DNA from: Candidatus Palauibacter soopunensis
GTDB taxonomy: Bacteria; Gemmatimonadota; Gemmatimonadetes; Palauibacterales; Palauibacteraceae
Direction of reading: 5' to 3'
NCBI RefSeq assembly: GCF_947581735.1
Contig: NZ_CANPVT010000002.1
Span: 522,144 to 586,143, forward strand
Length of the DNA: 64,000 nt
Within the stretch, counting starts at the first letter, position 1. Every line of letters begins with the position of its first letter. Below are positions 2,483 through 19,998 of the stretch, piece by piece. A model generated the notes under the pieces. It searched no databases and was not told the DNA's origin. It saw nothing but the letters and a program-made list of their open reading frames with translations. A program made the position numbers and the translations under genes.

Positions 2483-2518
2483 CACCTCCCTTGTGCATTT
2501 GTATCCTGCGGGTCGCGC

Positions 2519-2592
<74 letters not shown>

Positions 2593-2597
2593 TCTTT

Positions 2598-2634: not shown

Positions 2635-2667
2635 CTCTCCGATCCCTTTTGCGGGACGGGGGTATGA

Positions 2668-2740
2668 TCCGGGGTAGCTCAGTGGCCAGAGCGGGTGGCT
2701 GTTAACCACTAGGTCGTGGGTTCGAATCCCACCCCCGGAG
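2668..2740 (+). tRNA. tRNA-Asn(GTT)
   Basis: Acceptor tccgggg/ccccgga, anticodon loop CTGTTAA, T-loop GGTTCGAATCC. Confidence 0.9.
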
Positions 2741-2776
2741 TAGGGCAGCAGGGCTCTTGCCACGGGCTGCCAAAAG

Positions 2777-2849
2777 GGCTGGGTAGCTCAGGCGGTAGAG
2801 CACGGCGCTGAAAACGCCGGTGTCGGCGGTTCGACTCCGCCCCCAGCCA
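2777..2849 (+). tRNA. tRNA-Phe(GAA)
   Basis: Acceptor ggctggg/cccagcc, anticodon loop CTGAAAA, T-loop GGTTCGACTCC. Confidence 0.9.
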
Positions 2850-2890
2850 TTGCCACGGGCCGCCAACGGCCGGTTCGCGGGAAGCGGCAG

Positions 2891-2963
2891 AGGGGCGTAG
2901 CTCAATTGGTAGAGCACCGGTCTCCAAAACCGGCGGTTGGGGGTTCGAGTCCCTCCGCCCCTG
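2891..2963 (+). tRNA. tRNA-Trp(CCA)
   Basis: Acceptor aggggcg/cgcccct, anticodon loop CTCCAAA, T-loop GGTTCGAGTCC. Confidence 0.9.
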
Positions 2964-2966
2964 TCG

Positions 2967-3038
<72 letters not shown>

Positions 3039-3064
3039 TGGAGCAGCTTGGAACGGGATAGCGG

Positions 3065-3139
3065 GCGCCCGTAGCTCAGTTGGATCAGAGCACCGGCCTT
3101 CTAAGCCGGGGGTCCCAGGTTCGAGTCCTGGCGGGCGCG
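3065..3139 (+). tRNA. tRNA-Arg(TCT)
   Basis: Acceptor gcgcccg/cgggcgc, anticodon loop CTTCTAA, T-loop GGTTCGAGTCC. Confidence 0.9.
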
Positions 3140-3166
3140 TGGCAGAAGGGGACGACAGCGGCACGA

Positions 3167-3238
3167 GCCCCCATCGTCCAACGGCTAGGACACCACTCTT
3201 TCAAGGTGGAGATAGGGGTTCGATTCCCCTTGGGGGTA
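3167..3238 (+). tRNA. tRNA-Glu(TTC)
   Basis: Acceptor gccccca/tgggggt, anticodon loop CTTTCAA, typical Glu D-arm GTCCAACGGCTAGGAC. Confidence 0.85.
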
Positions 3239-3301
3239 CTGGAGCGGACGACCGGGCGGGAGTGCGGACCGCCCGTCCACGGAAGCGGAAGCAGGAAGCG
3301 C

Positions 3302-3374
3302 GGGGCCGTAGCTCAGCTGGGAGAGCGCTGCAATGGCATTGCAGAGGTCAGGGGTTCGAATCCCCTCGGCTCCA
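3302..3374 (+). tRNA. tRNA-Ala(GGC)
   Basis: Acceptor ggggccg/cggctcc with the G3:U70 identity pair, anticodon loop ATGGCAT (GGC). Confidence 0.9.
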
Positions 3375-3411
3375 TTCTCGCCGCCTCGGGATCGAGGTCG
3401 CGAGACCGTAC

Positions 3412-3484
<73 letters not shown>

Positions 3485-3549
3485 TTCCCCCACCGGCATC
3501 CTCGTTTCGCCTGCCGCCTCGCCTCGCTCCTCGGGGGCCGGCTTGCGCC

Positions 3550-4638
3550 TTATCGGTTCTCGCGCTCCTGGGCGCGGGCGCCCCGCAGGACGTTCTCCAG
3601 GGCGTAGTTCGCCTCGTGGCAGGCGTATTCGTAGAGGAGGTCGTCCATTCTCACGAACGGGACCTCGCCGCCCCACGGGGTCTCCCACGTGTCCGGGTCG
3701 TCGATCAGGAACTCATAGTTGATCGTGTTCGCGTCCACGCGCGTGAGCCGTTCCGTGATCTTCATGCTCGGACTCGCGCCGAAGAACTCGCGGTAGCCGG
3801 TGAGTTGCTGCGGATTGAGCTTCGTCGTCTCGATCACGAGGGTGTCGTCCTCCCACCAGCCGCGGGAATCCCCGAACCAGGGCCGGATCGCATCCGGGAA
3901 CGATGACGGGGCGCCGGTCTCGTCGGACTCTCCAGAGTCGGGAGCGACACCGATCGGGATGATGCGGGCGTCGTGCACCATCTCCGTCATGATCATGAGA
4001 TGGTCGGGGGTCTGCACGATGGTGTAGTTGTTGTTGTAGAAGTAGTTGGGAAGCATGGGAGGGCCGGCGTTGGACCCGAAGGAGACGATGCAGCGCTCCG
4101 AGAGGGGCCGGTTCTCGGGGTTGTCGTACTCGCCGTGCCGTCCGCGGACCGCGAGGAGCCCGCCGAGTCGCTGCTGGGCTTCCGCCGTGCGCGCGGGAAT
4201 GCGGCCATCCTTCGGCACCATGAGGAGGGAACTGCGCGGTTCTCCGTTCACGACGGCGACCTGATCTCCCCGGTCCAGATAGAAGAGGTTATAGCCGCCC
4301 GTGCCGCCGGCCGCCGCCTCCAGAACGAAGTCGCACCCGATGGTGGTGCCGCCCTCCGCCGGCGCGTCACGGTCCGGATCGCTGGATCCCGAGTGCGTCT
4401 CGATGCACTCCTGCCGGCCGCCCTCGATCTCGGCGACCTGCTCGGGCGTGAGCACGGCCTCGAAACCCTGGGGCCGTTCGATGGGCGTGATCGTCCCGTT
4501 CGTCCAGTTCCCCTGCAGGTCGGGGCGTCCGTCCGGCGTGCGCGGCAAGGCACCGCCATCCTGCGCCCGTGCGATCGGGATCGACACGGCGGCGAACAGC
4601 GCCACCGCGACCGTTGCGCGAATCATCGTTACCTTCAT
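3550..4638 (-). CDS. secreted hypothetical protein
   Basis: 362 aa with a clean Sec signal MKVTMIRATVAVALFAAVSIPIARAQ. The 3550..4638 track ORF is the only coherent frame here and no family is confidently recognised. Confidence 0.55.
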   Translation of the reverse strand: MKVTMIRATVAVALFAAVSIPIARAQDGGALPRTPDGRPDLQGNWTNGTITPIERPQGFEAVLTPEQVAEIEGGRQECIETHSGSSDPDRDAPAEGGTTIGCDFVLEAAAGGTGGYNLFYLDRGDQVAVVNGEPRSSLLMVPKDGRIPARTAEAQQRLGGLLAVRGRHGEYDNPENRPLSERCIVSFGSNAGPPMLPNYFYNNNYTIVQTPDHLMIMTEMVHDARIIPIGVAPDSGESDETGAPSSFPDAIRPWFGDSRGWWEDDTLVIETTKLNPQQLTGYREFFGASPSMKITERLTRVDANTINYEFLIDDPDTWETPWGGEVPFVRMDDLLYEYACHEANYALENVLRGARAQERENR

Positions 4639-4748
4639 CGGAACTTCCCTCGCGGTTCAGCGTCTCAGCGACACAGAAGGGTCGTCACTTTCTAATCATA
4701 TGGCTCGTTGCGCGATGGTTCACGGGGTGGCCGTCCGCCCGAGCCGGG

Positions 4749-5336
4749 ATGGAGATGCGGATGCCGGAATTCTCGTCCAACCGGGAAAGGCGCCTGTGGC
4801 TGTGGGCGCTGGCCGTGGTCGTGGCGATCTACGCGACGGCCGATCTCGCGCGAACGCTGGCCGACGCGCTGCGCGAGAGCGGGCTGCTCGAACTCACCCC
4901 CACCATGTTCAGCGCCGGCATGCTCCTGATCGGGATCATGATTCTGGTACAGGGGTTGAGGGAACGGTCGCGCGGCGTGGAGGTCGGCTTCGCGCTGGGC
5001 GTCGCCGCGATCGCCGTCCTCGGTTTCGCCCGGGGGATCGCCGCGGCCGAGCGTTCCCATCTCATCGAGTACGCGGTGCTGGCGCTCATCATCCACGAGG
5101 CCCTGGTGGAGCGGACGGCCCACGGGAGGCGCGTCCCGGTACCGGCCGTGCTGGCCATCGCGCTGACGACGGCGGTCGGCGTGGTGGACGAGTGCATCCA
5201 GTTCTTCCTCCCCAGCCGCACGTTCGACCTGTTCGACATCGGGTTCGACCTGCTGGCGAGCGTCCTCGCGGTCGGCTCGAGCGTCTCGATCCGCTGGGTA
5301 CGCCGCCTGATCGGAAGGTGGCGGCACCGGACCTAG
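4749..5336 (+). CDS. VanZ-like family membrane protein
   Basis: Starts at M61 of track ORF 4569..5336 (MEMRMPEF). Four TM helices and the VDECIQFFLPSRTFDLFDIGFDLLA motif typical of the VanZ family. Confidence 0.6.
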   Translation: MEMRMPEFSSNRERRLWLWALAVVVAIYATADLARTLADALRESGLLELTPTMFSAGMLLIGIMILVQGLRERSRGVEVGFALGVAAIAVLGFARGIAAAERSHLIEYAVLALIIHEALVERTAHGRRVPVPAVLAIALTTAVGVVDECIQFFLPSRTFDLFDIGFDLLASVLAVGSSVSIRWVRRLIGRWRHRT

Positions 5337-5439
5337 CTCGAGGAACCGTGTTTGATCGCCTGGCCTCAGATACCCGTGTACCGGCGGGGTGCCAGTCGTT
5401 ACGATGCGTCCCGTACTCGATCCGAATCAGGAGGTTCTC

Positions 5440-6726
5440 ATGCGGGGCATGATTCGCGCGCACCGTGGCGCGCTTTGGGCCGGACTCCTTGCCGTTTCAG
5501 CGACGGTCGCGTTTCCGGGCGTCGGGACCGCGCAGTACCTGCCCGCGCGCGGGGACGCGTGGGAGACGCGCACTCCGGAGCAGGTGGAGATGAACGCGGC
5601 CGGCGTCCAGGCGGCCGTCGAATACGCCCTCGAGCACGAGACGAGCCAGGCGCGAGACCGGGAGTTCCAGCACAGCCGGAGCTTCGGGCGCGAACCGCTC
5701 GGTGAGGGGATCGGCCCCTTCAACGTGCGTGGCGGGCCGGCCGGGATGATCGTGCGGCACGGCTACATCGTCGCGGAGTGGGGGGACACGAAGCGCGTCG
5801 ACATGACGTACAGCGTGACCAAGTCCTTCCTCTCAACGTCGGTGGGCCTCGCGTGGGACGAGGGACTCATCGGCTCGCTCGATGATACGGTGCGCGAGTA
5901 CATGGCCCCGATCGACGTGCCCCCGGGCGACGGGGAACCGGGCGTCGACCGCATCGGCTTCGGGAAGCCCGACCCGACGACGATGTTCGAGTCCGAGCAC
6001 AACCGCACCATCACGTGGGACGACCTCCTGCGGCAGACATCCGACTGGGAGGGCACGCTGTGGGGCAAGCCGGACTGGGCCGACCGTCCGAGCGGCGACC
6101 CCTCCACCTGGCTGACGCGGGAGCGCCATCCCTCGGGGACCGTGTACGAGTACAACGACACGCGGGTGAACCTGCTCGCGCTGGCTGCAATGAGCGTGCT
6201 GCGGCGTCCGCTGCCCGAGGTCCTGCACGAACGCGTGATGGGACCGATCGGCGCCTCGCCCACCTGGCGCTGGAACGGCTACGAGAACTCGTGGGTCACG
6301 ATCGACGGGCGTCGCGTGCAGTCGGTGAGCGGCGGCGGCCACTGGGGCGGCGGCATGTTCATCAGCGCCCGCGACCAGGCGCGCTTCGGCCTCTTCACCC
6401 TGCGGCGCGGGACGTGGGGAGACCGGCAACTCCTCTCCGAGGAATGGTTCGACCTCGCGACCACGCCGGGCCCGGCGAACGGCTCCTACGGGTTCATGAA
6501 TTTCATGCTCAACGTCGCGGACGACGAGGGAAACAAGCGCTATCCGAGCGCGCCCGAGGAGGCGTGGGCCCACCTCGGGAACGGCACGAACATGATTTAC
6601 TGCGACCCGGTGAACGATCTCGTCGTGGTGGCGCGCTGGATCCCGGGAGGGGCGATCGACGGCCTGCTCGACCTCGTCATCGACTCCATCGACAACGCGG
6701 CCGCGACCTCATCCGGGTCGCGCTGA
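5440..6726 (+). CDS. exported serine hydrolase, beta-lactamase (class C/S12) family
   Basis: Starts at M18 of ORF 5389..6726 after RBS caggagg. Signal peptide, SxxK motif YSVTKSF and a beta-lactamase-fold C-terminal region. Confidence 0.8.
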   Translation: MRGMIRAHRGALWAGLLAVSATVAFPGVGTAQYLPARGDAWETRTPEQVEMNAAGVQAAVEYALEHETSQARDREFQHSRSFGREPLGEGIGPFNVRGGPAGMIVRHGYIVAEWGDTKRVDMTYSVTKSFLSTSVGLAWDEGLIGSLDDTVREYMAPIDVPPGDGEPGVDRIGFGKPDPTTMFESEHNRTITWDDLLRQTSDWEGTLWGKPDWADRPSGDPSTWLTRERHPSGTVYEYNDTRVNLLALAAMSVLRRPLPEVLHERVMGPIGASPTWRWNGYENSWVTIDGRRVQSVSGGGHWGGGMFISARDQARFGLFTLRRGTWGDRQLLSEEWFDLATTPGPANGSYGFMNFMLNVADDEGNKRYPSAPEEAWAHLGNGTNMIYCDPVNDLVVVARWIPGGAIDGLLDLVIDSIDNAAATSSGSR

Positions 6727-6792
6727 ACCGAATCGCGGTCGGCCTCTGCGGCAGGTGGACGCTGGCGGCCGGCCCCGTTAGATTGCCCACAC

Positions 6793-6821
6793 GGCGCGTC
6801 GCCTCCTACGGCGGCGCGTTT
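6793..6821 (+). terminator. terminator-like GC hairpin plus TTT downstream of the hydrolase gene, immediately upstream of tRNA-Arg
   Basis: Stem ggcgcgtcgcc/ggcggcgcg with loop tcctac, followed by tttcgtg. Confidence 0.4.
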
Positions 6822-6828
6822 CGTGTCT

Positions 6829-6903
6829 GCGCCCGTAGCTCAGCCTGGATAGAGCGCTTGCCTCCGGAGCAAGAGGTCACAGGTTCGAATCCTGTCGGGC
6901 GCA
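6829..6903 (+). tRNA. tRNA-Arg(CCG)
   Basis: Acceptor gcgcccg/cgggcgc, anticodon loop CTCCGGA, nearly identical in framework to the E. coli Arg-CCG tRNA. Confidence 0.9.
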
Positions 6904-6976
6904 CTCGCCCCGGCTGAGCCAGCAGCACCGGTTCTCGGGGGGGCGACTCCCCGGACTGGAGAGTTCTGGGGCGCAG

Positions 6977-7061
6977 GCTCGGGTGGCGGAAATGGCAGAC
7001 GCGCAGGATTCAGGATCCTGTGGGATTAAACTCCCGTGGGGGTTCGACTCCCCCCCCGAGC
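6977..7061 (+). tRNA. tRNA-Leu(CAG), long variable arm
   Basis: GGTGGCGGAAATGGCAGACGC D-arm, anticodon loop TTCAGGA, variable arm tgggattaaactccc, T-loop GGTTCGACTCC. End points are within 1-2 nt. Confidence 0.85.
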
Positions 7062-7067
7062 ATCACC

Positions 7068-7153
7068 GGCCCAGGTGGCGGAACTGGCAGACGCGCTAGC
7101 TTGAGGGGCTAGTGTCCTTTTACGGACGTGGAGGTTCGAATCCTCTCCTGGGC
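7068..7153 (+). tRNA. tRNA-Leu(GAG), long variable arm
   Basis: Acceptor gcccagg/cctgggc, anticodon loop TTGAGGG, variable arm gtgtccttttacggac. Confidence 0.85.
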
Positions 7154-7193
7154 ATGCAGGACGACATCGCCGGTCGCGGGACGGCCGGCTCCG

Positions 7194-7267
7194 AGCGCCC
7201 GTAGCTCAACTGGATAGAGCACCTGACTACGGATCAGGAGGTTGGGGATTCGAATTCTCCCGGGCGC
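7194..7267 (+). tRNA. tRNA-Arg(ACG)
   Basis: Acceptor gcgcccg/cgggcgc, anticodon loop CTACGGA. Confidence 0.9.
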
Positions 7268-7460
7268 ATGCTTTCCTTCCTTCGGGCGTCGAGACTGCGC
7301 CCGCAAGAATTCGGGCGCTCCTGGAGCTTCGCTCCCCTTCGCTGGCCAAATTCTCCCGGGCACTTCCTTTCCTGCACACGTGCCGGGCGGCGTTGTCCCT
7401 AGGCTCGCGACGGGCTTCGCCCGCTCGCTGACGAATCTCCTCCAGGACGGGGTCCATTAG

Positions 7461-7913
7461 ATGCGCGTCAGGCCGGCTGAACGGGGGGATGTGGATCGGC
7501 TGCTGGAGTTGATGCGGGGGCTCGCGCGGTTTGAGGAGTACATCGACGACTTCGTGGTGACGCGGGAGAGTGTGCTCGAGCATGGGTTCGGGGACGACCG
7601 TCTTTTCACCGCGTTTGTCGCCGAAGAGGACGATGATCTCGTCGGGATGGCCGTGGTTTACACGATTCCGTGGACCTATACGCTGCGGCCCAAGGTCGTG
7701 CTCAAGGAGCTGTTCGTCGAAGAGGGTGCGAGAAACCTGGGGGCGGGAAAGGCCCTGATGGCGGCGGTGATTTCGCACGCCGAGTCCATCGGTGCGGCCG
7801 AGTTGATCTGGACCGTAATGGACGGGAACCGGGCTGCAGAAGGCTTCTACCGATCCCTGGGCGCTTCCCCGGATCTCAAGTGGAACAACTGGTCCCTGAG
7901 CCTCGACGATTGA
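7461..7913 (+). CDS. GNAT family N-acetyltransferase
   Basis: 150 aa. RBS ggacgggg upstream. Acetyl-CoA binding block LGAGKALMAAVISHAESIGAAELIWTV. Confidence 0.8.
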   Translation: MRVRPAERGDVDRLLELMRGLARFEEYIDDFVVTRESVLEHGFGDDRLFTAFVAEEDDDLVGMAVVYTIPWTYTLRPKVVLKELFVEEGARNLGAGKALMAAVISHAESIGAAELIWTVMDGNRAAEGFYRSLGASPDLKWNNWSLSLDD

Positions 7914-10434: not shown

Positions 10435-10905
10435 GTGGACACGCGAGTCCATGTAGACAGGGCGGGCGGCTTCGTCATGGCCCTGCCGGTTTCGGACGCG
10501 TTCCCGCTGTTCAGCGCGGAGGGTGAGCGGCGGTGGGTCGCAGGGTGGGATCCGCGCTACTTGTCTCCGAACGGGCCCCACGCGAGGGAAGGTCTGGTGT
10601 TCCAGACCATCAAGGAAGGCGTGGGAACGGCGACATGGGTCCAGACAAGGCATGCGCCCGCCGCGGGCGTCGCTTCGTTCGTGTACATAGTTCCCGACCA
10701 CCACACCGCCATGGTGGACGTTCGTGTGACTCCCGACAGTGACAACCGAAGCCGGGCGTCTGTGAAGTATCGAATGACGTCGCTTTCGTCCGACGCGGAC
10801 GATTTCGTGCGAGCGTTCGGCGAAGCCTTTGAGGACTTTATGGCCCAGTGGGCTCAGGCCATCCAGCGACACATCGTGGAAGGTGCCGCACTTACTCGGG
10901 AGTGA
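10435..10905 (+). CDS. hypothetical protein, possible SRPBCC/Bet v1-like fold
   Basis: 156 aa ORF with GTG start 4 nt after the SDR stop. No strong family motif. The start could instead be the ATG at 10477. Confidence 0.4.
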   Translation: MDTRVHVDRAGGFVMALPVSDAFPLFSAEGERRWVAGWDPRYLSPNGPHAREGLVFQTIKEGVGTATWVQTRHAPAAGVASFVYIVPDHHTAMVDVRVTPDSDNRSRASVKYRMTSLSSDADDFVRAFGEAFEDFMAQWAQAIQRHIVEGAALTRE

Positions 10906-10939
10906 AGGCGAGGACCTGAACCCTCGGCGCCGGAAGGGG

Positions 10940-11944
10940 GTGGGCCTCGGGCTGGCGGTAGCGGCGACGCTACTCGTGGCGTCCTGCAGTGGCCCTGTGC
11001 CCCGCGACTCCGAACCGCCTACCTGGGAGGTACGCTTTTCCCACGTGCTGTCGACCGGCTCCGAGTTCCATCTCATGGCGGAGCGGTTCCGGGATCTCAT
11101 GCTCGAGCGCACGGATGGACGGTTCCGGGTCGTCATCTATCCGTCGGGACAGCTCGGGGGCGAGCGCGTCGCCTTCGAGCAGATCCAGGTGGGCGCGGTC
11201 CACATGGCGATTACGGGTACCCCCGTGCTCTCGGGCTGGGTGCCCGAGACGCAGGTCTTCGATCTCCCCTTCCTGTTCGAGACCCGGGACCACGGGCTCG
11301 CGGCGATGAACGGCCCGGCGGGAGACTGGTGGCGCGACCTCCTCCTTGAGCGCACGGGCGTCCGCTCGCTGGGCTTTCTCGACTACGGGTTCCGCCACGT
11401 CTACAATCGGCGCCGGCCCATCGAGGCGCCCGAGGATCTCGCCGGCCTCAAGCTCAGGGTCCTCCAGAACGCGACGTACCTGGCGGCCTATTCCGCGCTC
11501 GGCGTCCAGGCGACGCCGATGAACTACGGCGAGGTCTACTCCGCGCTGCAGCAGGGCGTGATCGACGGCGGGGAGGCGAACGCGATCGGTTTCGTGAGCA
11601 GCCGGCTCCACGAGGTGGCGAAGTTCTACAGCTTCACCTCCATCACGTACAACCCCATCACGCTTCTCGTGAACGAGCCGTTCTATCGGGGGCTCCCTGC
11701 GGAGATCCGGGAGATCGTCGACGGTTCCGCGGCCGAGGCGCTCGCCTACCAGAGCGAAGTCGCGCGCCGGATGGAGGCGGACGCCATCGTGGAGATGCGC
11801 GCGGCCGGCGTGGAGATCTCGCGTCCGAACCTGGCGCCGTTCGCCCCGGCCGTCAGACCGCGGATATGGGACGAACTGGCGAATCGGCTGCCGGACGGCG
11901 AAGCGCTGATCGCAAGGTTGGTGGCTTCGACGGAGCGCCGATGA
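10940..11944 (+). CDS. dctP: TRAP transporter substrate-binding protein (DctP family), probable lipoprotein
   Basis: DctP-family body (FRVVIYPSGQLGGE...QNATYLAAYSALG...EVAKFYSF). Start taken at in-frame GTG (residue 38 of track ORF 10829) after aaggggg, giving MGLGLAVAATLLVASC. The track ORF start at 10829 is a TTG overlapping the upstream gene, so the true start is uncertain. Confidence 0.8.
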   Translation: MGLGLAVAATLLVASCSGPVPRDSEPPTWEVRFSHVLSTGSEFHLMAERFRDLMLERTDGRFRVVIYPSGQLGGERVAFEQIQVGAVHMAITGTPVLSGWVPETQVFDLPFLFETRDHGLAAMNGPAGDWWRDLLLERTGVRSLGFLDYGFRHVYNRRRPIEAPEDLAGLKLRVLQNATYLAAYSALGVQATPMNYGEVYSALQQGVIDGGEANAIGFVSSRLHEVAKFYSFTSITYNPITLLVNEPFYRGLPAEIREIVDGSAAEALAYQSEVARRMEADAIVEMRAAGVEISRPNLAPFAPAVRPRIWDELANRLPDGEALIARLVASTERR

Positions 11945-12462
11945 CGAAGCGGCTGCAGGTGTTCAACGGGCTCCTGGTGAGGCTTGAAACCTACGCCGTC
12001 GGCATTCTTGTGATCGCGGTCTGCGACGTGGTTCTCCTCCAAGTGTTGATGCGCTACCTCTTCGCCTGGCCGAATCCGTGGAGCGAGGAGGTGTCGCGCT
12101 TCTGCTTCATCTGGATGTCGCTGCTCGGGGCTTCGCTGGCGGTGGCGCATCGGTCCCACTTCCGGTTCGACCAGGTCACGGGGCGGCTGCCTCCGCGCGC
12201 GAAGAAGGCGGTGGAGACGTCCGCGGCAGCGATCGTGCTGATGTTCGCGCTCCTCCTCATCGGCGCGGGCATCGCCCTCATGGACCTCACGATGGGAGAG
12301 CGTTCCGCCGCGTTGAACCTGCCCGTTGCGCTCGTGTATGCGGCGGCGCCCGTGTCCGGCGTGTTGATGGCGATCCACATGCTCGCGGGTCCGACGGTCG
12401 CCGATTCGGACCGGCGGCTCGCGCCGGGGGTTGAGGATCTTCCAGCCGAGGGCGGCGGCTGA
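11941..12462 (+). CDS. dctQ: TRAP transporter small permease (DctQ)
   Basis: ATG at M26 of ORF 11866..12462 overlaps the dctP stop (ATGA). Four TM helices typical of DctQ. Confidence 0.8.
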   Translation: MTKRLQVFNGLLVRLETYAVGILVIAVCDVVLLQVLMRYLFAWPNPWSEEVSRFCFIWMSLLGASLAVAHRSHFRFDQVTGRLPPRAKKAVETSAAAIVLMFALLLIGAGIALMDLTMGERSAALNLPVALVYAAAPVSGVLMAIHMLAGPTVADSDRRLAPGVEDLPAEGGG

Positions 12463-13736
12463 TGGGCGGACTCCTCCTCGGGGCTTTCGGCCTCCTCGTG
12501 CTGGCCGCCGTGCCCATCGGATTCGCGCTCGCAATCGCCGCCATCATCGCCATCGTGGTGGCGGATCTCCCACTCGTCGTCATCCCGCAGCAGATCGTCG
12601 CGGGGATGGACTCGTTCCCCATGCTCGCCGTGCCCCTGTTCATCCTCGCCGGCTACCTGATGGATGTCGGAGGGATCAGCCGTCGCCTGGTGACGCTGGC
12701 CCGCGCCCTCGTCGGCCACCTGCCGGGAGGGCTCGGGCAGGTGGTCGTCATGGCGGAGGTGTTCTTCTCGGGCGTGTCGGGTTCGACGTCCGCGGATGCG
12801 GCCGCCGTCGGCGGCATCATGGTGCCCCAACTGACCGCGAACGGGTACGGCCGGGCGCGTGCCACGGCGATCGTCTCGGCCGCGTGCGGGATGGGGATCC
12901 TCATTCCGCCCGCCATCGTGATGGTCGTCTACGGCGTCATCGGCAACGTCTCCATAGGCGCCCTGTTCATCGCCTCGATCGTGCCCGCGCTCCTCATCGC
13001 CGCGGGCCTGATGGCGCAGATCGGGTGGCAGGCGCGGAGGGAAGGGTGGCCCCGCGGGGAGTGCGCCTCGTTCGCGGAACTCCGCCGCGCGATGATCGAC
13101 GCGGTGCTCCCGCTCTTCATGATCGTCGTCATCCTGGGGGGCATCCGCTTCGGCCTCTTCACCCCCACGGAGGCCGCGGCGGTCGCCGTCGCCTATGCGC
13201 TGCTCCTGGCGGGATTCGTGTACCGATCGCTCACCCTGGCGGATCTTTGGAGCAAGGTCGTCCAGACCGCCGTGGTGTCCGGAATGGTGCTGTTCGTCGT
13301 GGGCGCCGCGCACCTTCTGGGCTGGGTCCTCGCCGTCCTGCAGCTGCCGCAGACGCTGGCGTCATCGGTGGTGGGGCTGGGCGGCGGCCAGATCGGCTTC
13401 ATGCTCCTCACGATTCTCGTCTTCCTTCCGCTCGGCGCCATCCTCGAGGGCGTGCCCGCGGTCGTCCTGCTGACGCCGATCCTTCTGCCGCTGGCGACGC
13501 AACTCGGGATCGACCCCGTGCACTTCGGCGCCGTCATCGTGGCGACGCAGGGGATTTCCGTGTTCCTGCCGCCCGTCGGCGTGAGCCTGCTCGTCGCCTG
13601 CTCCGTGGGAGGTGTCGAGCCGGCGGAGGTCGCGCGCCCGCTCTGGCCCTACCTCGCCCTCATGCTGGCGCTCACGGTCGCCATCGCGCTCCTGCCCGGC
13701 GTCGTCCTGTTCCTGCCGGAACTGCTCGGGTATTGA
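12462..13736 (+). CDS. dctM: TRAP transporter large permease (DctM)
   Basis: 424 aa polytopic protein. ATG overlaps the dctQ stop. DctM-family blocks such as FFSGVSGSTSADAAAVGGIMVPQL. Confidence 0.9.
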   Translation: MGGLLLGAFGLLVLAAVPIGFALAIAAIIAIVVADLPLVVIPQQIVAGMDSFPMLAVPLFILAGYLMDVGGISRRLVTLARALVGHLPGGLGQVVVMAEVFFSGVSGSTSADAAAVGGIMVPQLTANGYGRARATAIVSAACGMGILIPPAIVMVVYGVIGNVSIGALFIASIVPALLIAAGLMAQIGWQARREGWPRGECASFAELRRAMIDAVLPLFMIVVILGGIRFGLFTPTEAAAVAVAYALLLAGFVYRSLTLADLWSKVVQTAVVSGMVLFVVGAAHLLGWVLAVLQLPQTLASSVVGLGGGQIGFMLLTILVFLPLGAILEGVPAVVLLTPILLPLATQLGIDPVHFGAVIVATQGISVFLPPVGVSLLVACSVGGVEPAEVARPLWPYLALMLALTVAIALLPGVVLFLPELLGY

Positions 13737-13789
13737 AGGGTCTGAGGCATGCATCGTTTCGTGAACGACATGACCCCTGGGACCGCACG

Positions 13790-14335
13790 ATGGAGACACG
13801 GGAGTTCGAGATCAGAACGGAGCGGTTGCTGCTGCGGCCGCACCGCCTGGAAGACGTCGACGACATCTTCGAGTTCGCCCGCGACCCGGAGTGGGCCCGA
13901 TACCTGCCGGTGCCGGTGCCATACCTCAGGGAACACGCGGAGGAGTTCGTGGCGCAGCGGATCCTCACGTCCCGGGAGGAGTGGCCGGTGTGGGCGATCG
14001 TCCTGGCAGGGAAGGTTATCGGCGGCATCGGAATCAGGATCGACGTCGAGCATGCGACGGGCGCACTGGGCTACTCGATTGCGAAGGAGCATTGGGGCCG
14101 AGGCCTGACCGTGGAGGCGGCCCGCGCCGTCGTCGACTGGGCGTTCCGCGAGCGCGGGCTCGCGAAGGTGTACGCGTACGCCGATGTGCGGAACACGTCG
14201 TCCCTGAGGGTGATGGAAAAGCTGGGCATGACCCGCGAGGGCATGTTGCGCGGCCACCGGACGCTGCGGGAGGAGCGGGTCGACGACGTGTACTACGGAC
14301 TCCTCAGGGAAGAGTGGGGGAGGGACGAAGGCTGA
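13790..14335 (+). CDS. GNAT family N-acetyltransferase (RimJ/RimL-like)
   Basis: In-frame ATG inside long track ORF 12431..14335. METREFEIRTERLLLRPHRLEDVDDIFEF...YSIAKEHWGRGLTVEAARAVVDWAF matches the RimL-type acetyltransferase pattern. Confidence 0.8.
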   Translation: METREFEIRTERLLLRPHRLEDVDDIFEFARDPEWARYLPVPVPYLREHAEEFVAQRILTSREEWPVWAIVLAGKVIGGIGIRIDVEHATGALGYSIAKEHWGRGLTVEAARAVVDWAFRERGLAKVYAYADVRNTSSLRVMEKLGMTREGMLRGHRTLREERVDDVYYGLLREEWGRDEG

Positions 14336-14344
14336 GTCGGTCCG

Positions 14345-15079
14345 TCAGTACTTGATGTCGGTTCGGCCGACCGTCATCCCGATGTTGCCGACCCGCCGCC
14401 CCATCGTGTAGTGCTCGCCACTCCCGGCGGTCATCCCGAAGAAGTCCACGGCCGGCACGATCAGGCGGCCGGCGTCGTCGACCGCGCCCTCGATGGCGGT
14501 CGTCGCCACGACCTCCGCGAGGAACACCTTCCGCTCGGGCGGCACCTCGAGGGAGTCGAAGATCCGGCACTCGCAGTGGATGGGGGACTCCTCCACGGTG
14601 GGCGCATCGACGACGGTCGCCGCGCCGCGCGTCAGACCCGAGAGCTCGAACTTGTCGGCCACGCGGCCGGAGTTCATGTCGACGGTGTCGAACGCCTCCA
14701 CCATCGACGCGAGCGGGACGTTCAGCACGAACTCGTCGTGCATGTCCAGGAGTTCCCTCGCCTGATGCTCTAGGGCTGCGCTCACCCCGATCTGGGGCGG
14801 GTCGCCGCTCACGACGAACGTCCACAGCACCGAGATCTCGTCCGGGTCGCCGGGCCGGCCGTTCACGGTGAGCAGAATCGCCGGGACGGGCGGGAGCATC
14901 GGGCCCGGCTCCGCAAGCAACCGGCGAGCCCCGGTGAGCGGCGCCGGCGGCCTACCCCCGCCCACCGGCATCCCTTCGTCGGGTGCACATCCCCAAACAG
15001 CGGCAACCGCGGCGGCCGCCGAGCCACTCCCCAGAAACCGCCTCCGCGACCAGCCGTGCGTTGCTGACATCGTCTTCAC
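14345..15079 (-). CDS. flavin reductase-like (FMN-binding split-barrel) domain protein with Tat signal
   Basis: 244 aa. SRRRFLGSGSAAAAVAAV twin-arginine signal. C-terminal region resembles the flavin reductase/HpaC-like domain. Last gene of the minus-strand operon running from 18745. Confidence 0.65.
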   Translation of the reverse strand: MKTMSATHGWSRRRFLGSGSAAAAVAAVWGCAPDEGMPVGGGRPPAPLTGARRLLAEPGPMLPPVPAILLTVNGRPGDPDEISVLWTFVVSGDPPQIGVSAALEHQARELLDMHDEFVLNVPLASMVEAFDTVDMNSGRVADKFELSGLTRGAATVVDAPTVEESPIHCECRIFDSLEVPPERKVFLAEVVATTAIEGAVDDAGRLIVPAVDFFGMTAGSGEHYTMGRRVGNIGMTVGRTDIKY

Positions 15080-15115
15080 CGCCTCCTCGCGGATGACTCG
15101 CCGTTCGACCCGACA

Positions 15116-16255
15116 TCAATAGATGCCGGGGATGATCCGATATTTGACCCGTGCTTGATACTCGGCCCACTTCTCGGGGCCGTATTTTTCGGCGCAGAAC
15201 TTGTCGTCGAAGCGCTGTCGAAAAATGAACAGTCCGACGATGAAGACGAAGTAGGTCCAGGCCCAGGGGTTGGCGAAGTAGCCGAACACGAGGGCGATGG
15301 AGAGGGAGAAGAGGCCCTCGCCGAGATAGTTGAAGTGGCGGGCGACGCCCCACAGGCCGCTGCACAGGATCTTGCGGTCGCCGGCCTCGATGTACTCGGG
15401 CTCGATGAGACCGAGGAACTTGCGCTCGGGCCAGCGCTTGAAGGTGTACTTCTGCATGTTGGCGCCGCGCGTGATGCCCCATGCGACGAGGAACAGCGCG
15501 GGTGCGCCGATCAACCACACCTGTCTCCAGGGCGCCGCGAAGCCGGGGGCCGGGTACACGGCCAGGCCCCACAGCGGCAGGATGTAGAGCCACCCGTACA
15601 CCATGATCCCGCCCCAGATCATCTTGAAGCCGAGCTTCTCGTGGATCACATCGTACGTGTAGAGCTGGACGCGCTCGAAGATGAAGTAGTCGAAGACGTA
15701 GAACGTGAGGAACCCCGCGTAGAGGAAGACGCCGGGGTTGGAGTCCGCGCCGAAGAGCCCGTAGTGGTACGCGGCTCCGGAGAGGGCGTTCAGCGACAGC
15801 ATGGTCCCGCCGACGACGTACAGGAACATCTTCACGTCGAAGCGTTCGTTGAAGAACGAAAGCTCGAGGACGCGCCCTTCCCAGAGGGCGGCGAGCGGGC
15901 GCTCCACCTTGTCGCGCGACCCTCCGAACACCGCGAGGAGGGCGAAGACCAGGCACATGACCGTGCCGCCGGCCACCTGGTAGACGGTGGACCGGTAGAA
16001 CCAGTCTCGCGGCATCCCGGTGAGTTCGAGCGCCCACACGACCTCGGCGAGCACGAACACCGGCAGACCGTTCAGTCGGTAGCCGCGGGGCTCGCCGGTC
16101 TCCGGGTTGATGACGTAACCCGGGACCCGCCTTCCAGGCAGAATGAGTTGCAGCACGAAGAACGCGGCGCAGATCGCGAGCGGGGCGAGGAAGCCGGCAA
16201 GCGCTTCGGTCCCGGAAAGCGCGAACAGATGGCCGATGCCAAGCCATTCAATCAT
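15116..16255 (-). CDS. ERG4/ERG24 sterol-reductase family membrane protein (7-dehydrocholesterol/delta14-sterol reductase-like)
   Basis: 379 aa polytopic protein with the family signature CSGLWGVARHFNYLGEGL and C-terminal KYGPEKWAEYQARVKYRIIPGIY. Start ATG overlaps the upstream stop (TGATG). Confidence 0.8.
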   Translation of the reverse strand: MIEWLGIGHLFALSGTEALAGFLAPLAICAAFFVLQLILPGRRVPGYVINPETGEPRGYRLNGLPVFVLAEVVWALELTGMPRDWFYRSTVYQVAGGTVMCLVFALLAVFGGSRDKVERPLAALWEGRVLELSFFNERFDVKMFLYVVGGTMLSLNALSGAAYHYGLFGADSNPGVFLYAGFLTFYVFDYFIFERVQLYTYDVIHEKLGFKMIWGGIMVYGWLYILPLWGLAVYPAPGFAAPWRQVWLIGAPALFLVAWGITRGANMQKYTFKRWPERKFLGLIEPEYIEAGDRKILCSGLWGVARHFNYLGEGLFSLSIALVFGYFANPWAWTYFVFIVGLFIFRQRFDDKFCAEKYGPEKWAEYQARVKYRIIPGIY

Positions 16256-16599
16256 CAGAAAAGATCCTCCCCGGGGAACGCCGATGCCTGCCGGAGCCAG
16301 TCTGCCAGGAGATCCTCGTCCGGCTCGTCGTCCTCGTAGATGTGGAAGTAGCGCACCTGCTCGTGCTTCGATTCCACCGGCGGCGCGGGACGCAGCGAGG
16401 CGCCGTTGAGGAACGTCACCTTGACGTACCGCGTGAAGCAGTGGAACGAGAGGAACCAGCCCCTGTCTTCGATGCCGTAGAAGGGCGAGTTCCAGCGGAC
16501 CGCCCTGCGGACATCAGGCACGTTACGCTCGATGAGCGCGTCGAGGTGGCGGCCGACCTCCCGTTTCCAACCCGGCATGGCCGTGATGTACGCCTGCAC
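16255..16599 (-). CDS. DUF1801 (YdhG-like) domain protein
   Basis: Real gene is the C-terminal 114 codons of track ORF 16255..17322. GTG start preceded by aaggggga gives VQAYITAMPGWKREVGRHLDALIERNVPDVRRAVRWNSPFYG, typical DUF1801. Stop overlaps the ERG4-like start by 1 nt. Confidence 0.6.
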   Translation of the reverse strand: MQAYITAMPGWKREVGRHLDALIERNVPDVRRAVRWNSPFYGIEDRGWFLSFHCFTRYVKVTFLNGASLRPAPPVESKHEQVRYFHIYEDDEPDEDLLADWLRQASAFPGEDLF

Positions 16600-16667
16600 G
16601 GGCGCATCTCCATCCCCCTTCGGAATCTGGGGATTGCCGCCGGAGAGGAGTTTCGCGACCAGGCCCG

Positions 16668-18128
16668 CTATCCCTCCGTCCGCGCGAACCGCAGGTTCCT
16701 GACCCGCCCGGCGTCGACGATCAGCGCCTCGTGCCGGCCGCCGACGAGTTCGGAGAAGCGGAGGGTCGGCCCGTCCTCGGTCGTGAGTTGCCTCTCCGAT
16801 TCGGCCACGAGGGCGACCGGGTCCCGCCGGCCGACGTGCAGCATGAGCCCGGCAGCGCCGTCCTCCACGATCCGATACGTGGCGTCCAACTCGGGACTGT
16901 AGAAGGATCCGGCGTAACGCGCGCGGTTCGGAATGTCGTGGTCGGGCAGAGCCTCGGGAGCGTCCTCGTCTGCGGCCTGCATCTCCTCCTCTCCCTCCGC
17001 GACGTCCTCGGGCGGATCCATCGCGTCTTCCAGGTAGATTTCGGCCGTGCTCGCGATGAGGGCCATGGGATCGATCCGCGACCGGTTGCACAGGGCGACG
17101 AACGAGTAGCCGGCGTCGGGATAGCGGGACATGCCCGTGCGGTAGCCCACCCACGAGCCACTGTGCCGCACCGTGGCCAGCCCCCGGTGTTCGCCGTGGG
17201 AGAGACCGAAGGCGTACGGAATCGTGTCGCCGGAGGTGAGCACGCCCCGCTCGTGCATGAGCGCGACCCACTCCGGTCCGCCGACCGTACCCTCGGTGAG
17301 GTTGCGGTCCCAGGCGGGCCACTCCTCCACCGAAGTGTAGATGCCGCCGTCCCCGACCACGTCGAGCGTCGTCATGTTGATCCGGAAGCCGTCATCGGTG
17401 GGGGAATAACCGGTCGCCCGGTCGGCGACGACTTCGTTGTGGTCGTCGTGGAAGTGCGTGCGCGGCATGCCCAGAGGATCGAAGAACTCGGCCCGCGCGA
17501 ACTCCCGCAGGCTCTGCCCCGAAACCTTGGCCACGATCTCGGCGAGCAGGACGTAGCCGGAGTTGCTGTACAGGTACTCGGAGCCCGGAGGAAAGTTTAG
17601 TTCGCGCTGCCGGTGGATCGCATCGAGGATGTCCTGATTCGTGATGAAGTCCTCGCTCCGGTTCCCCGCCAGGGTGAAGAGCACGAGGTAGTCGCGCACG
17701 CCGGACGTGTGGTGGATCAGGTGTCGGACGGTGGGAGAGTCGGCGTAGTCGGGGAATTCGGGGATGTAGCGCCGGACGGGAGCATCCAGATCCACCTCTC
17801 CCCGGAGGGCGAGCAGGGCGACCGCGCCGGCCGTGAACTGCTTCGAGACGGACGCGATGCGGTAGATGGTCTCCGGGCCGTTCGGGATGCCGTGGTCGAG
17901 GTTGGCGGTGCCGTAGCCGGCGGCGTGGATCGGGCGGCCGTCCCGGATCACGGCCATGGAGCAGCCGGGCCCGTCGGCGCTGGCGTAGTCGGCGAAGACG
18001 GCGTCGACTTGGGCCTGCAGCTCGCCGTCGGCCCCCGGGGCGCAGCCTGTGAGCGCGCCGACCAGGATCGCGGCCACGGCGGCCGTCCCGGCCGGATGAC
18101 GGTCGGGGCGCCGCGGGTGCGCGGTCAG
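16668..18128 (-). CDS. beta-lactamase-family serine hydrolase, lipoprotein
   Basis: Beta-lactamase fold with SVSKQF (SxxK) and YSNSGY motifs. Probable CTG start (residue 277 of ORF 16668..18956) after gaggggg gives the lipoprotein signal LTAHPRRPDRHPAGTAAVAAILVGALTGC and overlaps the upstream stop as CTGA. An alternative GTG start lies at 18077. Confidence 0.75.
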   Translation of the reverse strand: MTAHPRRPDRHPAGTAAVAAILVGALTGCAPGADGELQAQVDAVFADYASADGPGCSMAVIRDGRPIHAAGYGTANLDHGIPNGPETIYRIASVSKQFTAGAVALLALRGEVDLDAPVRRYIPEFPDYADSPTVRHLIHHTSGVRDYLVLFTLAGNRSEDFITNQDILDAIHRQRELNFPPGSEYLYSNSGYVLLAEIVAKVSGQSLREFARAEFFDPLGMPRTHFHDDHNEVVADRATGYSPTDDGFRINMTTLDVVGDGGIYTSVEEWPAWDRNLTEGTVGGPEWVALMHERGVLTSGDTIPYAFGLSHGEHRGLATVRHSGSWVGYRTGMSRYPDAGYSFVALCNRSRIDPMALIASTAEIYLEDAMDPPEDVAEGEEEMQAADEDAPEALPDHDIPNRARYAGSFYSPELDATYRIVEDGAAGLMLHVGRRDPVALVAESERQLTTEDGPTLRFSELVGGRHEALIVDAGRVRNLRFARTEG

Positions 18129-18745
18129 GATCGCCCCCTCGGCCAGAGGCTGAACGGTTCGCGCGCGAACACCCGGCGGACCATCGGCTCGAAGAACTCG
18201 AGCGGGAGCGAGTCGTAGTCGGGGTCGAAGGCGCACTGGTCCCAGCGGTGGCAGAAGTCCACCGCGTCCTGGTACCAGGGGTGGTCGCGGTATCGGTCGC
18301 GCACGTTGCGGTCGCGGCCCAGGTGGTGGGCGTAGTAGACGAGCTGGAACAGGCCGTGGTGCCGGACGATCCAGTGCGTGCGCTCGGTCACGAAGGGGCG
18401 GAGCAGCAGGGCGGCCAGTTCGCCGTGGCTGTGCGGGGCCAGCAGATCGTCGATGTCGTGCAGGAGCGCCGCCACGACCATCTCCTCTTCCGCGCCGTCG
18501 CGATGGGCGCGGGTCGCGCTCTGCAGTGAATGTTCGAGCCGGTCGACGTGGTAGCCGCCAACGGAGCCTGACAGCTCGCGGAGGTGCGCCAGCACGCGGT
18601 CGGCGGTATCGGCGGCGAACTCGTCCTCGAGGCGCGCGAGCAGTTCGTAGTCCTCGCGGGTGCCGTCCTCCATGCGCGTGAAACTCACGACGGGGCCGCT
18701 CGGCCCTCTGCCGGCTCCTGCGCTCGTCCCGGCCGTACGGGGCAT
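18125..18745 (-). CDS. HD-domain oxygenase-like protein (PhnZ/TmpB-like mixed-valent diiron oxygenase family)
   Basis: About 206 aa from M26 of ORF 18125..18820 (RBS ggagag). HD motif LLHDIDDLL plus an additional His cluster (HWIVRHHGLFQLVYYAHHLG). Size and motif spacing match the small HD oxygenases rather than phosphohydrolases. Confidence 0.65.
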   Translation of the reverse strand: MPRTAGTSAGAGRGPSGPVVSFTRMEDGTREDYELLARLEDEFAADTADRVLAHLRELSGSVGGYHVDRLEHSLQSATRAHRDGAEEEMVVAALLHDIDDLLAPHSHGELAALLLRPFVTERTHWIVRHHGLFQLVYYAHHLGRDRNVRDRYRDHPWYQDAVDFCHRWDQCAFDPDYDSLPLEFFEPMVRRVFAREPFSLWPRGRS

Positions 18746-18882
18746 GCCGGTCACTCTCCGCTGAGGGTTGGATCGGGGGTTCCTCGCCGCAGCGTCGGCA
18801 GAAGCGAAGGGCATTGTCAAGATCGCTCGGGCGTCCGTAGCGTTCGCTGCAGGCCGGTGACCACGGACTGGGAGGATCGACC

Positions 18883-19998
18883 ATGGGTGCCTCGATCAGC
18901 AGCCTCGCGCAGAACGGCGACGCCCTGACGGCGGTCTGGAGCGACGGCGAACGCACCGATCTCCCCTACCTCTGGCTGCGCGACAACTGCGGCTGCGGAG
19001 AGTGCTGCGTCGAGCAGACCACGGAGAAGCGCTTCCACGTCTTCCGCGTCCCCAGCGACCTGAAGCCGTCGACGGTCGATATCGAAGGCGCCGGATCCGA
19101 CGACGAGGCGATTTCCATCGCCTGGCCGGACGGACACCGCACGCGCCACCGGTCGAGCGACATCCACGGCCTCCTGAGCCGGCCTCGTCTCGAATTGCAG
19201 TACTGGGACGGACGGTTCGAGCCCCGGAGGTTCGACTACCAGCGGTTCCTGGCGGACGACAGCGCGGCGGCGGAACTGATCGAGGAGTTCCTGCGCACCG
19301 GGGTGTGCGTACTGGTCGCCGCTCCCACCGAACCGGATTCGTTGGAGGAGCTCGCCGTCCGTCTGGGCCCGGTCCGGGAGGTGCTGTTCGAGCGCATCCA
19401 CAACGTCAAGCTCGATCCGAAGGGCTACAACATCGCGCATACGGCTCTGGCCGTCGGGGCGCACAACGACTTCACCAGCTACACGTGGCCCCCGAGCGTG
19501 CAGGCGCTGCACATGCTGGTGAACGAGTGCGAGGGCGGCGCGTCGACCGTCGTGGACGGCTTCGGCCTGCTCGAGGCGCTCCGCCGGGAGCACCCCGATA
19601 AGTTCGACGCCCTGTGCTCGGTGCCGGTGCCGTTCCGGATCTTCAGCGACGAGTACGAGTGCTACGCGGCGAACCCCATGGTCGACCTCGACAGTGACGG
19701 GGAGATCAGGATGATCCGCTTCAACACGGCGCAGATGCAGGCCGTTTCCCTGTCGGAGCCCCGGCTGGGCGAGTTCTACGCCGCCTACCACGAGCTGTCG
19801 AGCCGCGTCAACGACCCCGGCGCCCAGGTGACCTTCCGGCTGGAGGGCGGCATGATCCTTCTGTGTGCCGGACACCGCGTCCTCCACGGCCGCACCGAGA
19901 TGGTATCGTCCGGCGCGCGCCACCTGCAGGACGCCTACTTCGAACACGACAACGTCCGCACCCACCTGCGGCTCCTCCGCCGCACCGGCCGCGCCTGA
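18883..19998 (+). CDS. gamma-butyrobetaine hydroxylase/TmpA-like Fe(II)/2-oxoglutarate dioxygenase with N-terminal DUF971 zinc domain
   Basis: 371 aa. CxCxxC...H zinc motif (LWLRDNCGCGECC...DGHRTRH), TauD-fold HxD (AHNDFT) and a distal His (HRVLHGRTE). Divergent from the HD oxygenase gene. Confidence 0.8.
   Translation: MGASISSLAQNGDALTAVWSDGERTDLPYLWLRDNCGCGECCVEQTTEKRFHVFRVPSDLKPSTVDIEGAGSDDEAISIAWPDGHRTRHRSSDIHGLLSRPRLELQYWDGRFEPRRFDYQRFLADDSAAAELIEEFLRTGVCVLVAAPTEPDSLEELAVRLGPVREVLFERIHNVKLDPKGYNIAHTALAVGAHNDFTSYTWPPSVQALHMLVNECEGGASTVVDGFGLLEALRREHPDKFDALCSVPVPFRIFSDEYECYAANPMVDLDSDGEIRMIRFNTAQMQAVSLSEPRLGEFYAAYHELSSRVNDPGAQVTFRLEGGMILLCAGHRVLHGRTEMVSSGARHLQDAYFEHDNVRTHLRLLRRTGRA

Follow-up and report, generated by a model that had tools for sequence, protein, structure and literature searches.

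Canonical sterol C14 reductases (plant FACKEL-type enzymes, fungal ERG24 and TM7SF2/LBR) and MaSR1, a delta-14 sterol reductase of Methylomicrobium alcaliphilum (PDB 4QUV), belong to one Pfam family and share a fold, NADPH-contacting residues and a tyrosine. Reductases of the same superfamily have been reported from the sterol gene clusters of sponge symbionts, namely the CSG cluster (PMC9531527), msbC of the Melophlus cluster (PMC7074536) and the 'ERG24' of the Aplysina cluster (PMC10070321). In Ircinia symbionts, sterol genes including K00222 are enriched, exhibit a low omega and were attributed to horizontal gene transfer (PMC9531527). The sponge-symbiont clusters described so far list no side-chain reductase (PMC10070321 supplement). 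Furthermore, a delta-24 sterol reductase was ascribed to Coxiella burnetii (Gilk et al. 2010, as relayed in PMC9666466), and the ERG4/ERG24-type enzymes of Coxiella and chlamydiae belong to host-associated bacteria thought to modify host sterols, not to make them. Here, we analyzed a 64,000-nucleotide (nt) stretch of Candidatus Palauibacter soopunensis (contig NZ_CANPVT010000002.1, positions 522,144 to 586,143), hereafter the window, which encodes a 379-amino acid (aa) ERG4/ERG24-family integral-membrane reductase of a non-canonical branch (15116..16255, minus strand). Like the sponge-symbiont cluster reductases, this protein is found in kinds of bacteria that probably live in sponges, has a similar length and appears to have been transferred horizontally. 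By sequence comparison, it is a second, divergent paralogue and not the canonical delta-14 reductase of the sterol pathway.

The initial annotation had described a membrane protein of the ERG4/ERG24 family that is rare in bacteria, and our results support this description. The two motifs that it quoted were found, GLWGVARHFNYLGEG spanning residues 300-314 and KYGPEKWAEYQ residues 357-367. The Pfam model PF01222 (ERG4_ERG24) aligned full-length above its curated threshold, with residues 28-379 covering model positions 77-432 (E = 2.3e-36, 125.9 bits, cut-off 27). PF06966 (DUF1295) gave only a weak match of 25 bits over residues 213-369, far under the PF01222 score, even though the protein is named 'DUF1295 domain-containing protein' at NCBI; no NCBIfam model matched it. 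Although DUF1295 proteins have the C-terminal RHxNYxGE motif in common with the window protein, a true member of that family (150 bits, locus L044) is only 21% identical to it and lacks the equivalents of N359 and R395 of MaSR1. The closest solved structure was 4QUV (E = 3.4e-35, residues 34-379 on chain positions 86-427, ~33% identity over ~330 residues), followed by 9L5R, another delta-14 reductase (E = 8e-17). The family is scarce, with 1251 cluster representatives at E<=1e-3 among 1.84 billion.

The reductase gene cannot begin at a canonical start upstream of ATG 16255, as the frame, which runs stop-to-stop up to 16513, is devoid of ATG, GTG and TTG beyond it. The N-terminus MIEWLGIGH... 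is kept in homologues of many phyla, nearly all of which are 379 aa long, and the gene is under purifying selection throughout (dN/dS 0.08-0.2), indicating a live gene. A pseudogene or spurious open reading frame (ORF) was considered and rejected given these dN/dS values and a GC content at third codon positions (GC3) of 0.895, like that of the neighbouring genes.

Foldseek comparison of an AlphaFold2 model of the reductase with the PDB returned 4QUV as the sole match (E = 1.8e-10, TM-score 0.61-0.63), and the model is consistent with a MaSR1-type polytopic fold bearing a C-terminal NADPH pocket. The first helix of MaSR1 has no counterpart in the window protein, nor in the reductase encoded within a sterol gene cluster of another Palauibacter genome (locus L009, described below). 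The residues that we regard as key are Tyr186, Trp302, Arg306, Asn309, Tyr310, Glu313, Arg346, Asp350, Lys357 and Tyr358. N359 and R395 of MaSR1 correspond to N547 and R583 of LBR, where mutation lowers the affinity for NADPH (PMC4951196). These two residues are found as N309 and R346 in the window protein, and W352, R356, K406 and Y407 of MaSR1 as W302, R306, K357 and Y358; all are invariant in the 379-aa clade. Y241 of MaSR1 is proposed to protonate the double bond with Asp363 as its partner (PMC12489058). Y241 is matched by Tyr186, and Asp363 is replaced by Glu313. The L009 cluster reductase, a member of the C14 clade, also has Glu at this position, so the replacement need not abolish activity.

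Evidence on the placement of the window protein comes from L009, a Palauibacter chromosome carrying a homologue 90% identical to the window reductase in the same DUF1801-reductase-flavin reductase-GNAT gene order. A scan of the homologous loci for the cyclase signature DCTAE matched L009 only. There, Pfam searches revealed a complete sterol cluster (positions 1-7513, minus strand) lying on the strand opposite to the reductase row, ~100 nt from DUF1801. The cluster encodes, all on the minus strand, an SdmB-like NAD-dependent epimerase/3-beta-hydroxysteroid dehydrogenase (6266-7513), an SdmA-like Rieske oxygenase, a 368-aa ERG4_ERG24 reductase (4046-5152, 241.5 bits; record NZ_OZ253465.1), the cytochrome P450 CYP51 (2673-4100), and a squalene epoxidase fused to a squalene/oxidosqualene cyclase with the DCTAE motif, which runs off the locus. 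This content is that of the published sponge-symbiont clusters (CSG, PMC9531527; msbA-F, PMC7074536; Aplysina, PMC10070321). The cluster reductase and the 379-aa homologue are ~3 kb apart, and it is the 368-aa protein, not the homologue, that fills the reductase slot between the SdmA-like gene and CYP51. The cluster reductase is 40% identical to MaSR1 and 32% identical to the window protein, whose PF01222 score is half as high (126 vs 241 bits). Since L009 has its own C14 reductase beside the homologue, the window protein is best regarded as the second paralogue, which, unlike the cluster reductases, usually occurs solo outside a cluster.

Phylogenetic analysis was consistent with this view. 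A profile of the cluster-reductase group found named plant delta-14 reductases, Rhizopus ERG24, Paramoeba ERG24 and Balamuthia TM7SF2. The named plant, fungal and amoebal C14 reductases, MaSR1 and the L009 cluster reductase formed one group in 98% of 300 neighbour-joining (NJ) bootstraps. In contrast, the 379-aa clade fell outside this group, with a support of 99% of its own and of 94% with P0123, a protein of 50% identity, as its sister. The delta-14 label that came with the family name in the initial annotation therefore did not extend to orthology. Kinship with another canonical type was not apparent either, as a search of representatives with the window protein ranked no long Tyr/Asp-type sequence above the C14-type ones and found it no closer to any of them. 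The branch to which the clade belongs also includes Monosiga brevicollis A9VAA6, a chytrid protein, and transcriptome or metagenome sequences from Barroeca and Corallochytrium. The recorded names of 20 family representatives offered no functional anchor, being limited to 'uncharacterized', 'hypothetical', 'DUF1295' or automatic labels.

We compared the neighbourhoods of the reductase by tblastn with the window neighbours on the best 80 of 533 homologous genome stretches. Sterol genes occur near the homologue in 13 of these 80 loci, which represent four or more lineages and vary in gene arrangement; most copies are solo genes amid unrelated genes. Within the single genus Palauibacter, a sterol methyltransferase, a CYP51 gene or a whole cluster is found at or within ~5 kb of the reductase locus. 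In L008, a solo CYP51 gene (6441-7829, minus strand) is divergent from the homologue across a shared intergenic region of 171 bp, and no canonical reductase was found within the 8-kb flanks. The best PDB matches of this P450 are all CYP51s (6MCW, E = 1.9e-104), and the L009 cluster CYP51 shares 79% identity with it. In L006 (2226-3338) and L007 (2994-4025), a sterol methyltransferase gene (Sterol_MT_C) lies ~5 kb from the homologue, between aldo-keto reductase and TauD genes that abut in the window at 19998/19999. The link to sterols put forward in the initial annotation is plausible, since homologues in close relatives lie beside sterol genes such as that for an oxidosqualene cyclase fusion; in the window itself, no sterol gene was found. 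The suggestion of hopanoid-like modification gained no support, as no hopanoid link was seen.

Sterol-related genes also accompany other homologues. Those of Dadabacteria-type loci (L081-L086, L053/L055) have as flanking genes two that encode GPP34-P450 fusions and one each for a Sterol_MT_C methyltransferase, a TP_0789-like protein and an MMPL transporter bearing a sterol-sensing domain. The fused P450s are ~23% identical to CYP51, and CYP51 itself is missing from these clusters. A Dehalococcoidia locus (L027) comprises the homologue followed by genes for a Rieske/KshA_C oxygenase, a GPP34-P450 and a methyltransferase, and two Gemmatimonadota loci encode the P450 fusion (L022 and L023), with a methyltransferase in L022. 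Furthermore, P0131, a 361-aa relative of 42% identity with a gammaproteobacterial label, is encoded in an operon (L096, 2293-10133) with a sulfotransferase, a Rieske/KshA_C oxygenase, a Polyketide_cyc2/START-like protein and three short-chain dehydrogenases/reductases (SDRs). This operon may specify a pathway for steroid modification or sterol sulfates.

The fusions themselves, of GPP34 (GOLPH3-like) with cytochrome P450, are 672 aa long and often occur in tandem (L081, 3239-7647; also L053, L055, L022, L023 and L027). In L081, a 448-aa protein with no Pfam match, the TP_0789-like/DUF1329 protein and the sterol-sensing MMPL transporter adjoin the methyltransferase (10474-15531). This group could be a sterol transport system, and we take its proteins to resemble the Bst proteins of Methylococcus.

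More than 1000 relatives were found by protein search. The best 120 share 74-91% identity with the window protein and measure 376-397 aa, almost all of them exactly 379 aa. An exact look-up of the window protein in an assembly index gave no record. The 533 stretches mentioned above came from one-genome-per-species bacterial and archaeal genomes, with identities of 75-97% among the best 80. Palauibacter genomes make up the closest loci (97-90%), the 97% relative being the complete chromosome OZ242312.1. The metagenome-assembled genomes (MAGs) behind the best 80 are labelled Gemmatimonadota (Candidatus Palauibacter, Longimicrobiales), Dehalococcoidia/SAR202, Thermodesulfobacteriota, Nitrospirales, Nitrospinota, Acidobacteriota, Latescibacterota, Binatia and Rhodospirillaceae; the protein search added Dadabacteria, Acidimicrobiaceae and Gammaproteobacteria, for about ten phyla in all. 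Many record names point to sponges (irciniicola, rhopaloidicola, Spongia_Bin9, SB06xx, RHO, IRC, COS, APA), at least one homologue record has a coral-like label (Plut), and 21 of the 52 MAGs in the Palauibacterales paper came from sponges. From these names and that paper, rather than from sample metadata, we infer that the hosts of the homologues are sponge-associated bacteria.

The number of synonymous substitutions per site (dS) between the window gene and a Dehalococcoidia copy is 0.75, and 0.90 with a Nitrospirales copy. In vertically inherited genes of different phyla, synonymous sites are expected to be saturated. The low dS between phyla therefore speaks for horizontal spread. An NJ tree of the homologues showed a shallow radiation, which a long stem separates from P0123, the nearest outgroup. 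Phyla mostly cluster on their own in this tree, a few lineages being misplaced, namely L048, which groups with Latescibacterota, L061, which groups with Binatia, and the second Gemmatimonadota clade formed by L072/L075. Two copies per genome were also observed, in one MAG (L003 and L075) and on one contig (L053 and L055). The GC content of the gene tracks that of its flanks across loci (r = 0.87), and in the window its GC3 matches that of neighbouring genes, which makes a very recent transfer into the window genome unlikely. The search for a transfer vehicle revealed no close relative on known plasmids and no phage match, the sole match being a protein of 28% identity on a Planktothrix plasmid. 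Altogether, the sequence data indicate single-gene horizontal spread among sponge-associated bacteria of many phyla.

The explanation that best accounts for these observations as a whole is that the window gene encodes an accessory NADPH-dependent sterol double-bond reductase, a tailoring paralogue, and we give it about an even chance of being correct. The protein would be a membrane enzyme of the nine-helix ERG4/ERG24 type with NADPH bound on its C-terminal half. Tyr186 would protonate a C=C double bond and NADPH would give the hydride, with Glu313 in place of the usual Asp. The substrate would be a membrane-embedded sterol or tetracyclic triterpenoid, obtained by own synthesis via a separate sterol gene cluster or from the sponge host; that it is a sterol we infer from the genes beside the homologues. 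The divergent second paralogue would thus serve as a tailoring enzyme, the gene of which would have spread horizontally as a single gene and then been kept under purifying selection. As to the bond reduced, our guess is a side-chain one, delta-24(25), delta-24(28) or delta-25, because L009 already has a C14 reductase, the published clusters list no side-chain reductase and the homologue accompanies methyltransferases. The bolder proposal that the 379-aa clade is an unrecognised sterol reductase of sponge and coral microbiomes, stand-alone across about ten phyla and saturating side chains, is tentative and, in our estimation, has chances well short of even. Several observations weigh against a sterol-tailoring enzyme. 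The AlphaFold2 model is only moderately confident (pLDDT 67, pTM 0.72). Pfam searches of the large window ORFs and tblastn with the sterol proteins of related loci revealed no squalene/oxidosqualene cyclase, squalene synthase or epoxidase, CYP51, SdmA/B or sterol methyltransferase in the 64-kb window, and ~67 of the 80 loci are without a sterol gene within 8 kb. Furthermore, the clade lies within a large branch whose sampled members have no function-specific name, several being uncharacterised or hypothetical. At the position of the Tyr proposed as catalytic in canonical enzymes, most members of the branch carry Phe, in contrast to the 379-aa clade with its Tyr186, and the branch has nearly always Glu in its NYxGD/E motif. 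The named reductases covered by the tree are of the C14 type. Finally, the CYP51 pairing of L008 points to delta-14, not to the side chain.

This pairing makes a delta-14 sterol reductase a serious rival. The window protein would then be an alternative or back-up to the cluster enzyme, reducing the 8,14-diene left by CYP51, also in genomes that retain CYP51 alone. Besides the divergent CYP51 gene of L008 with no canonical reductase at hand, the conserved Tyr and NADPH residues and the automatic JGI annotation of some related sequences as delta14-sterol reductase are in keeping with it. However, the cluster next to the L009 homologue already provides an orthologous C14 reductase, the C14 clade excludes the window clade, and most copies have no nearby CYP51, including those of the Dadabacteria-type clusters with their distant P450s, so that we consider this activity unlikely. 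We judge similarly improbable a non-sterol lipid or terpenoid substrate, such as a polyprenol, a carotenoid-like compound, a sponge terpenoid or a polyketide, with the proximity of sterol genes being a coincidence or a loose clustering of lipid genes. The lack of sterol neighbours at most loci and of any characterised member found in the branch would fit such a substrate, as would UsgR, a DUF1295-like ene-reductase of the wider superfamily that acts on a non-sterol substrate (PMC8597850), and the genuine DUF1295 gene directly upstream of the homologue in Acidobacteriota loci. Against it stand the recurrence of sterol genes in varied arrangements in several lineages, their repeated presence around the locus within one genus, and the steroid-type appearance of the P0131 operon. 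As for an ICMT/PEMT-like methyltransferase instead of a reductase, the JGI auto-name 'protein-S-isoprenylcysteine O-methyltransferase Ste14' on some relatives speaks in its favour. Conversely, a Pfam scan at E<=0.01 found no match to PF04140 or PF04191, the PF01222 score is high, the NADPH-contact residues are conserved and 4QUV was the only structural match, leaving this reading next to no credibility.

The accessory sterol reductase that we favour would also act apart from the small DUF1801 protein encoded just upstream, which the initial annotation had proposed as a dedicated, translationally coupled partner. The start of the reductase gene does share one base (16255) with the DUF1801 stop, as claimed: read on the minus strand, the junction (16253..16270) consists of a Shine-Dalgarno-like GGAGGA (16270-16265) within the 3' end of the DUF1801 gene, the stop TGA (16257-16255) and the reductase ATG (16255-16253), i.e. 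GGAGGA-N9-TGATG. This overlap is kept in L001-L006 and confined to them. Elsewhere, DUF1801 is separated from the homologue by a gap of 30-37 nt (L007 and L009) or by the CYP51 gene (L008). Adjacency was observed in only nine of the 80 loci (L001-L009), all of one genus-level lineage, Candidatus Palauibacter, and is missing in the other 71. In other Gemmatimonadota, the closest DUF1801 homologue is ~7 kb off beside a helix-turn-helix gene or was not seen, and in several of their loci a serine hydrolase gene directly abuts the homologue with no DUF1801 between. Furthermore, DUF1801 evolves faster than the reductase (dN/dS 0.15-0.3 vs 0.08-0.15). Because adjacency is limited to the nearest Palauibacter genomes and does not follow the reductase wherever it occurs, DUF1801 is not a dedicated partner; we consider a partnership very improbable. 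The overlap is local gene packing only. All-against-all clustering of the ORFs from the 80 loci revealed no neighbour conserved across phyla. An SDR neighbour in 16 loci was dismissed as chance, these SDRs being non-orthologous (25-38% identity between phyla).

The earliest chemical traces claimed for animals are based on sponge sterols such as 24-isopropylcholesterol, and the capacity of bacterial symbionts to make or remodel them is disputed. Published work on sponge symbionts has described sterol clusters and methyltransferases, the clusters being listed without a side-chain-saturating enzyme, and the second paralogue is a concrete candidate for that role. If the side-chain reading is true, it would cover 24-alkylated sterols produced by symbiont methyltransferases or acquired from the host and would supply a missing step by which bacteria make or remodel saturated 24-alkyl sterols, e.g. 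24-isopropylcholesterol precursors. Action on host sterols would be analogous to the role assumed for the Coxiella and chlamydial enzymes, although by description those are intracellular bacteria with eukaryote-like acquisitions, whereas the nearest relatives of the window clade are bacterial. If the enzyme acts on something else, it would give a function to a large uncharacterised ERG4/ERG24 branch that is also present in choanoflagellates and other protists. The family, its fold, the K00222 delta-14 genes of sponge symbionts, their enrichment, low omega and horizontal transfer are already published (PMC9531527), and the window clade may be among the 'scattered' K00222 matches of Kelly et al. 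in that study. In the published sponge-symbiont sterol papers that we read, we did not find the two paralogues, the 379-aa paralogue outside the C14 clade and its mostly solo occurrence, nor the different sterol genes at or within ~5 kb of its locus in one genus. We present the reductase as a testable candidate for a missing sterol-tailoring step and not as a novel kind of system.

In the window, the reductase gene is part of a tightly packed minus-strand row comprising a serine hydrolase gene, DUF1801, the reductase gene and a flavin-reductase-like gene. A scan of 13600-19200 for promoters and terminators revealed nothing above shuffle expectation. The flavin-reductase-like protein (14345..15079, minus strand, 244 aa; PF01613, E = 2.5e-16) is encoded 36 nt downstream of the reductase. 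Its gene directly follows the homologue in L001-L005 and L007-L009, is ~850 nt away in L006 and also follows the divergent copies L072 and L075; it was observed in Gemmatimonadota only and is more persistent than DUF1801. The protein bears a twin-arginine motif (SRRRFL) and a lipobox-like VWGC, with a match to the twin-arginine translocation signal model TIGR01409 exactly at cut-off. An export motif with a lipobox-like cysteine is unusual in this protein, as the PF01613 family is normally cytoplasmic.

The DUF1801 (YdhG-like) gene (16255..16662, minus strand; PF08818, E = 1.2e-17) probably begins further upstream than initially annotated. The minimal ORF starts at GTG 16599 and encodes 114 aa, and this GTG is replaced by GTA in L002 and GTC in L006. 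The stretch upstream of it, LLSGGNPQIPKGDGD (16650-16600), is conserved at the protein level, with 7 synonymous and 1 non-synonymous differences from L014. CTG 16662 lines up with the GTG start of the 135-aa DUF1801 gene called in L014 and L087. Because the upstream coding stretch is conserved and GTG 16599 is not, the start at 16599 is probably too short, and the true start would be CTG 16662, for a protein of 135 aa. The adjacent gene encodes a beta-lactamase-family serine hydrolase carrying a signal of the lipoprotein type, LTGC (16668..18128, minus strand; PF00144, E = 2.2e-62), the start of which is uncertain, perhaps CTG 18128, and it ends 5 nt ahead of the probable DUF1801 start. For both genes, no canonical start exists where conservation or the position of the signal peptide demands one (16600-16662 and 18126-18131, minus strand). 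The CTG candidates both sit at or after an upstream stop, in a CTGA overlap at 18128 and, at 16662, 5 nt past a TAG. CTG initiation is possible in this lineage. In L004 and L005, where the hydrolase is missing, DUF1801 connects to the start region of the hydrolase.

Two further homologue or family loci differ from those described above in their surroundings. A 70%-identical cluster representative (L095, 14165-15621) lies near KwaA/KwaB (Kiwa defence), toxin-antitoxin genes and a gene for a large helicase. P0184, a 436-aa family member (L098), is encoded on a contig of 719 kb with many large genes that lack annotation; this contig may derive from a eukaryote or a giant virus. The other large window ORFs with a Pfam match encode TRAP and amino-acid transporters, peptidases, a gamma-glutamyltranspeptidase, a TauD/GBBH-like dioxygenase, an aldo-keto reductase, TonB-type receptors and similar proteins. 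Beta-lactamase-family serine hydrolase genes occur three times within the 64 kb (5356-6726, 16668-18128 and 45823-47427), along with many peptidase and transporter genes. Finally, a minus-strand ORF with an HD-like motif, LHDIDD, and no Pfam match at 1e-5 (18125-18895) is divergent from the TauD/GBBH-like dioxygenase gene (18841-19998, plus strand), a pair that we take to be reminiscent of the phosphonate-degrading pairs PhnY/PhnZ or TmpA/TmpB.

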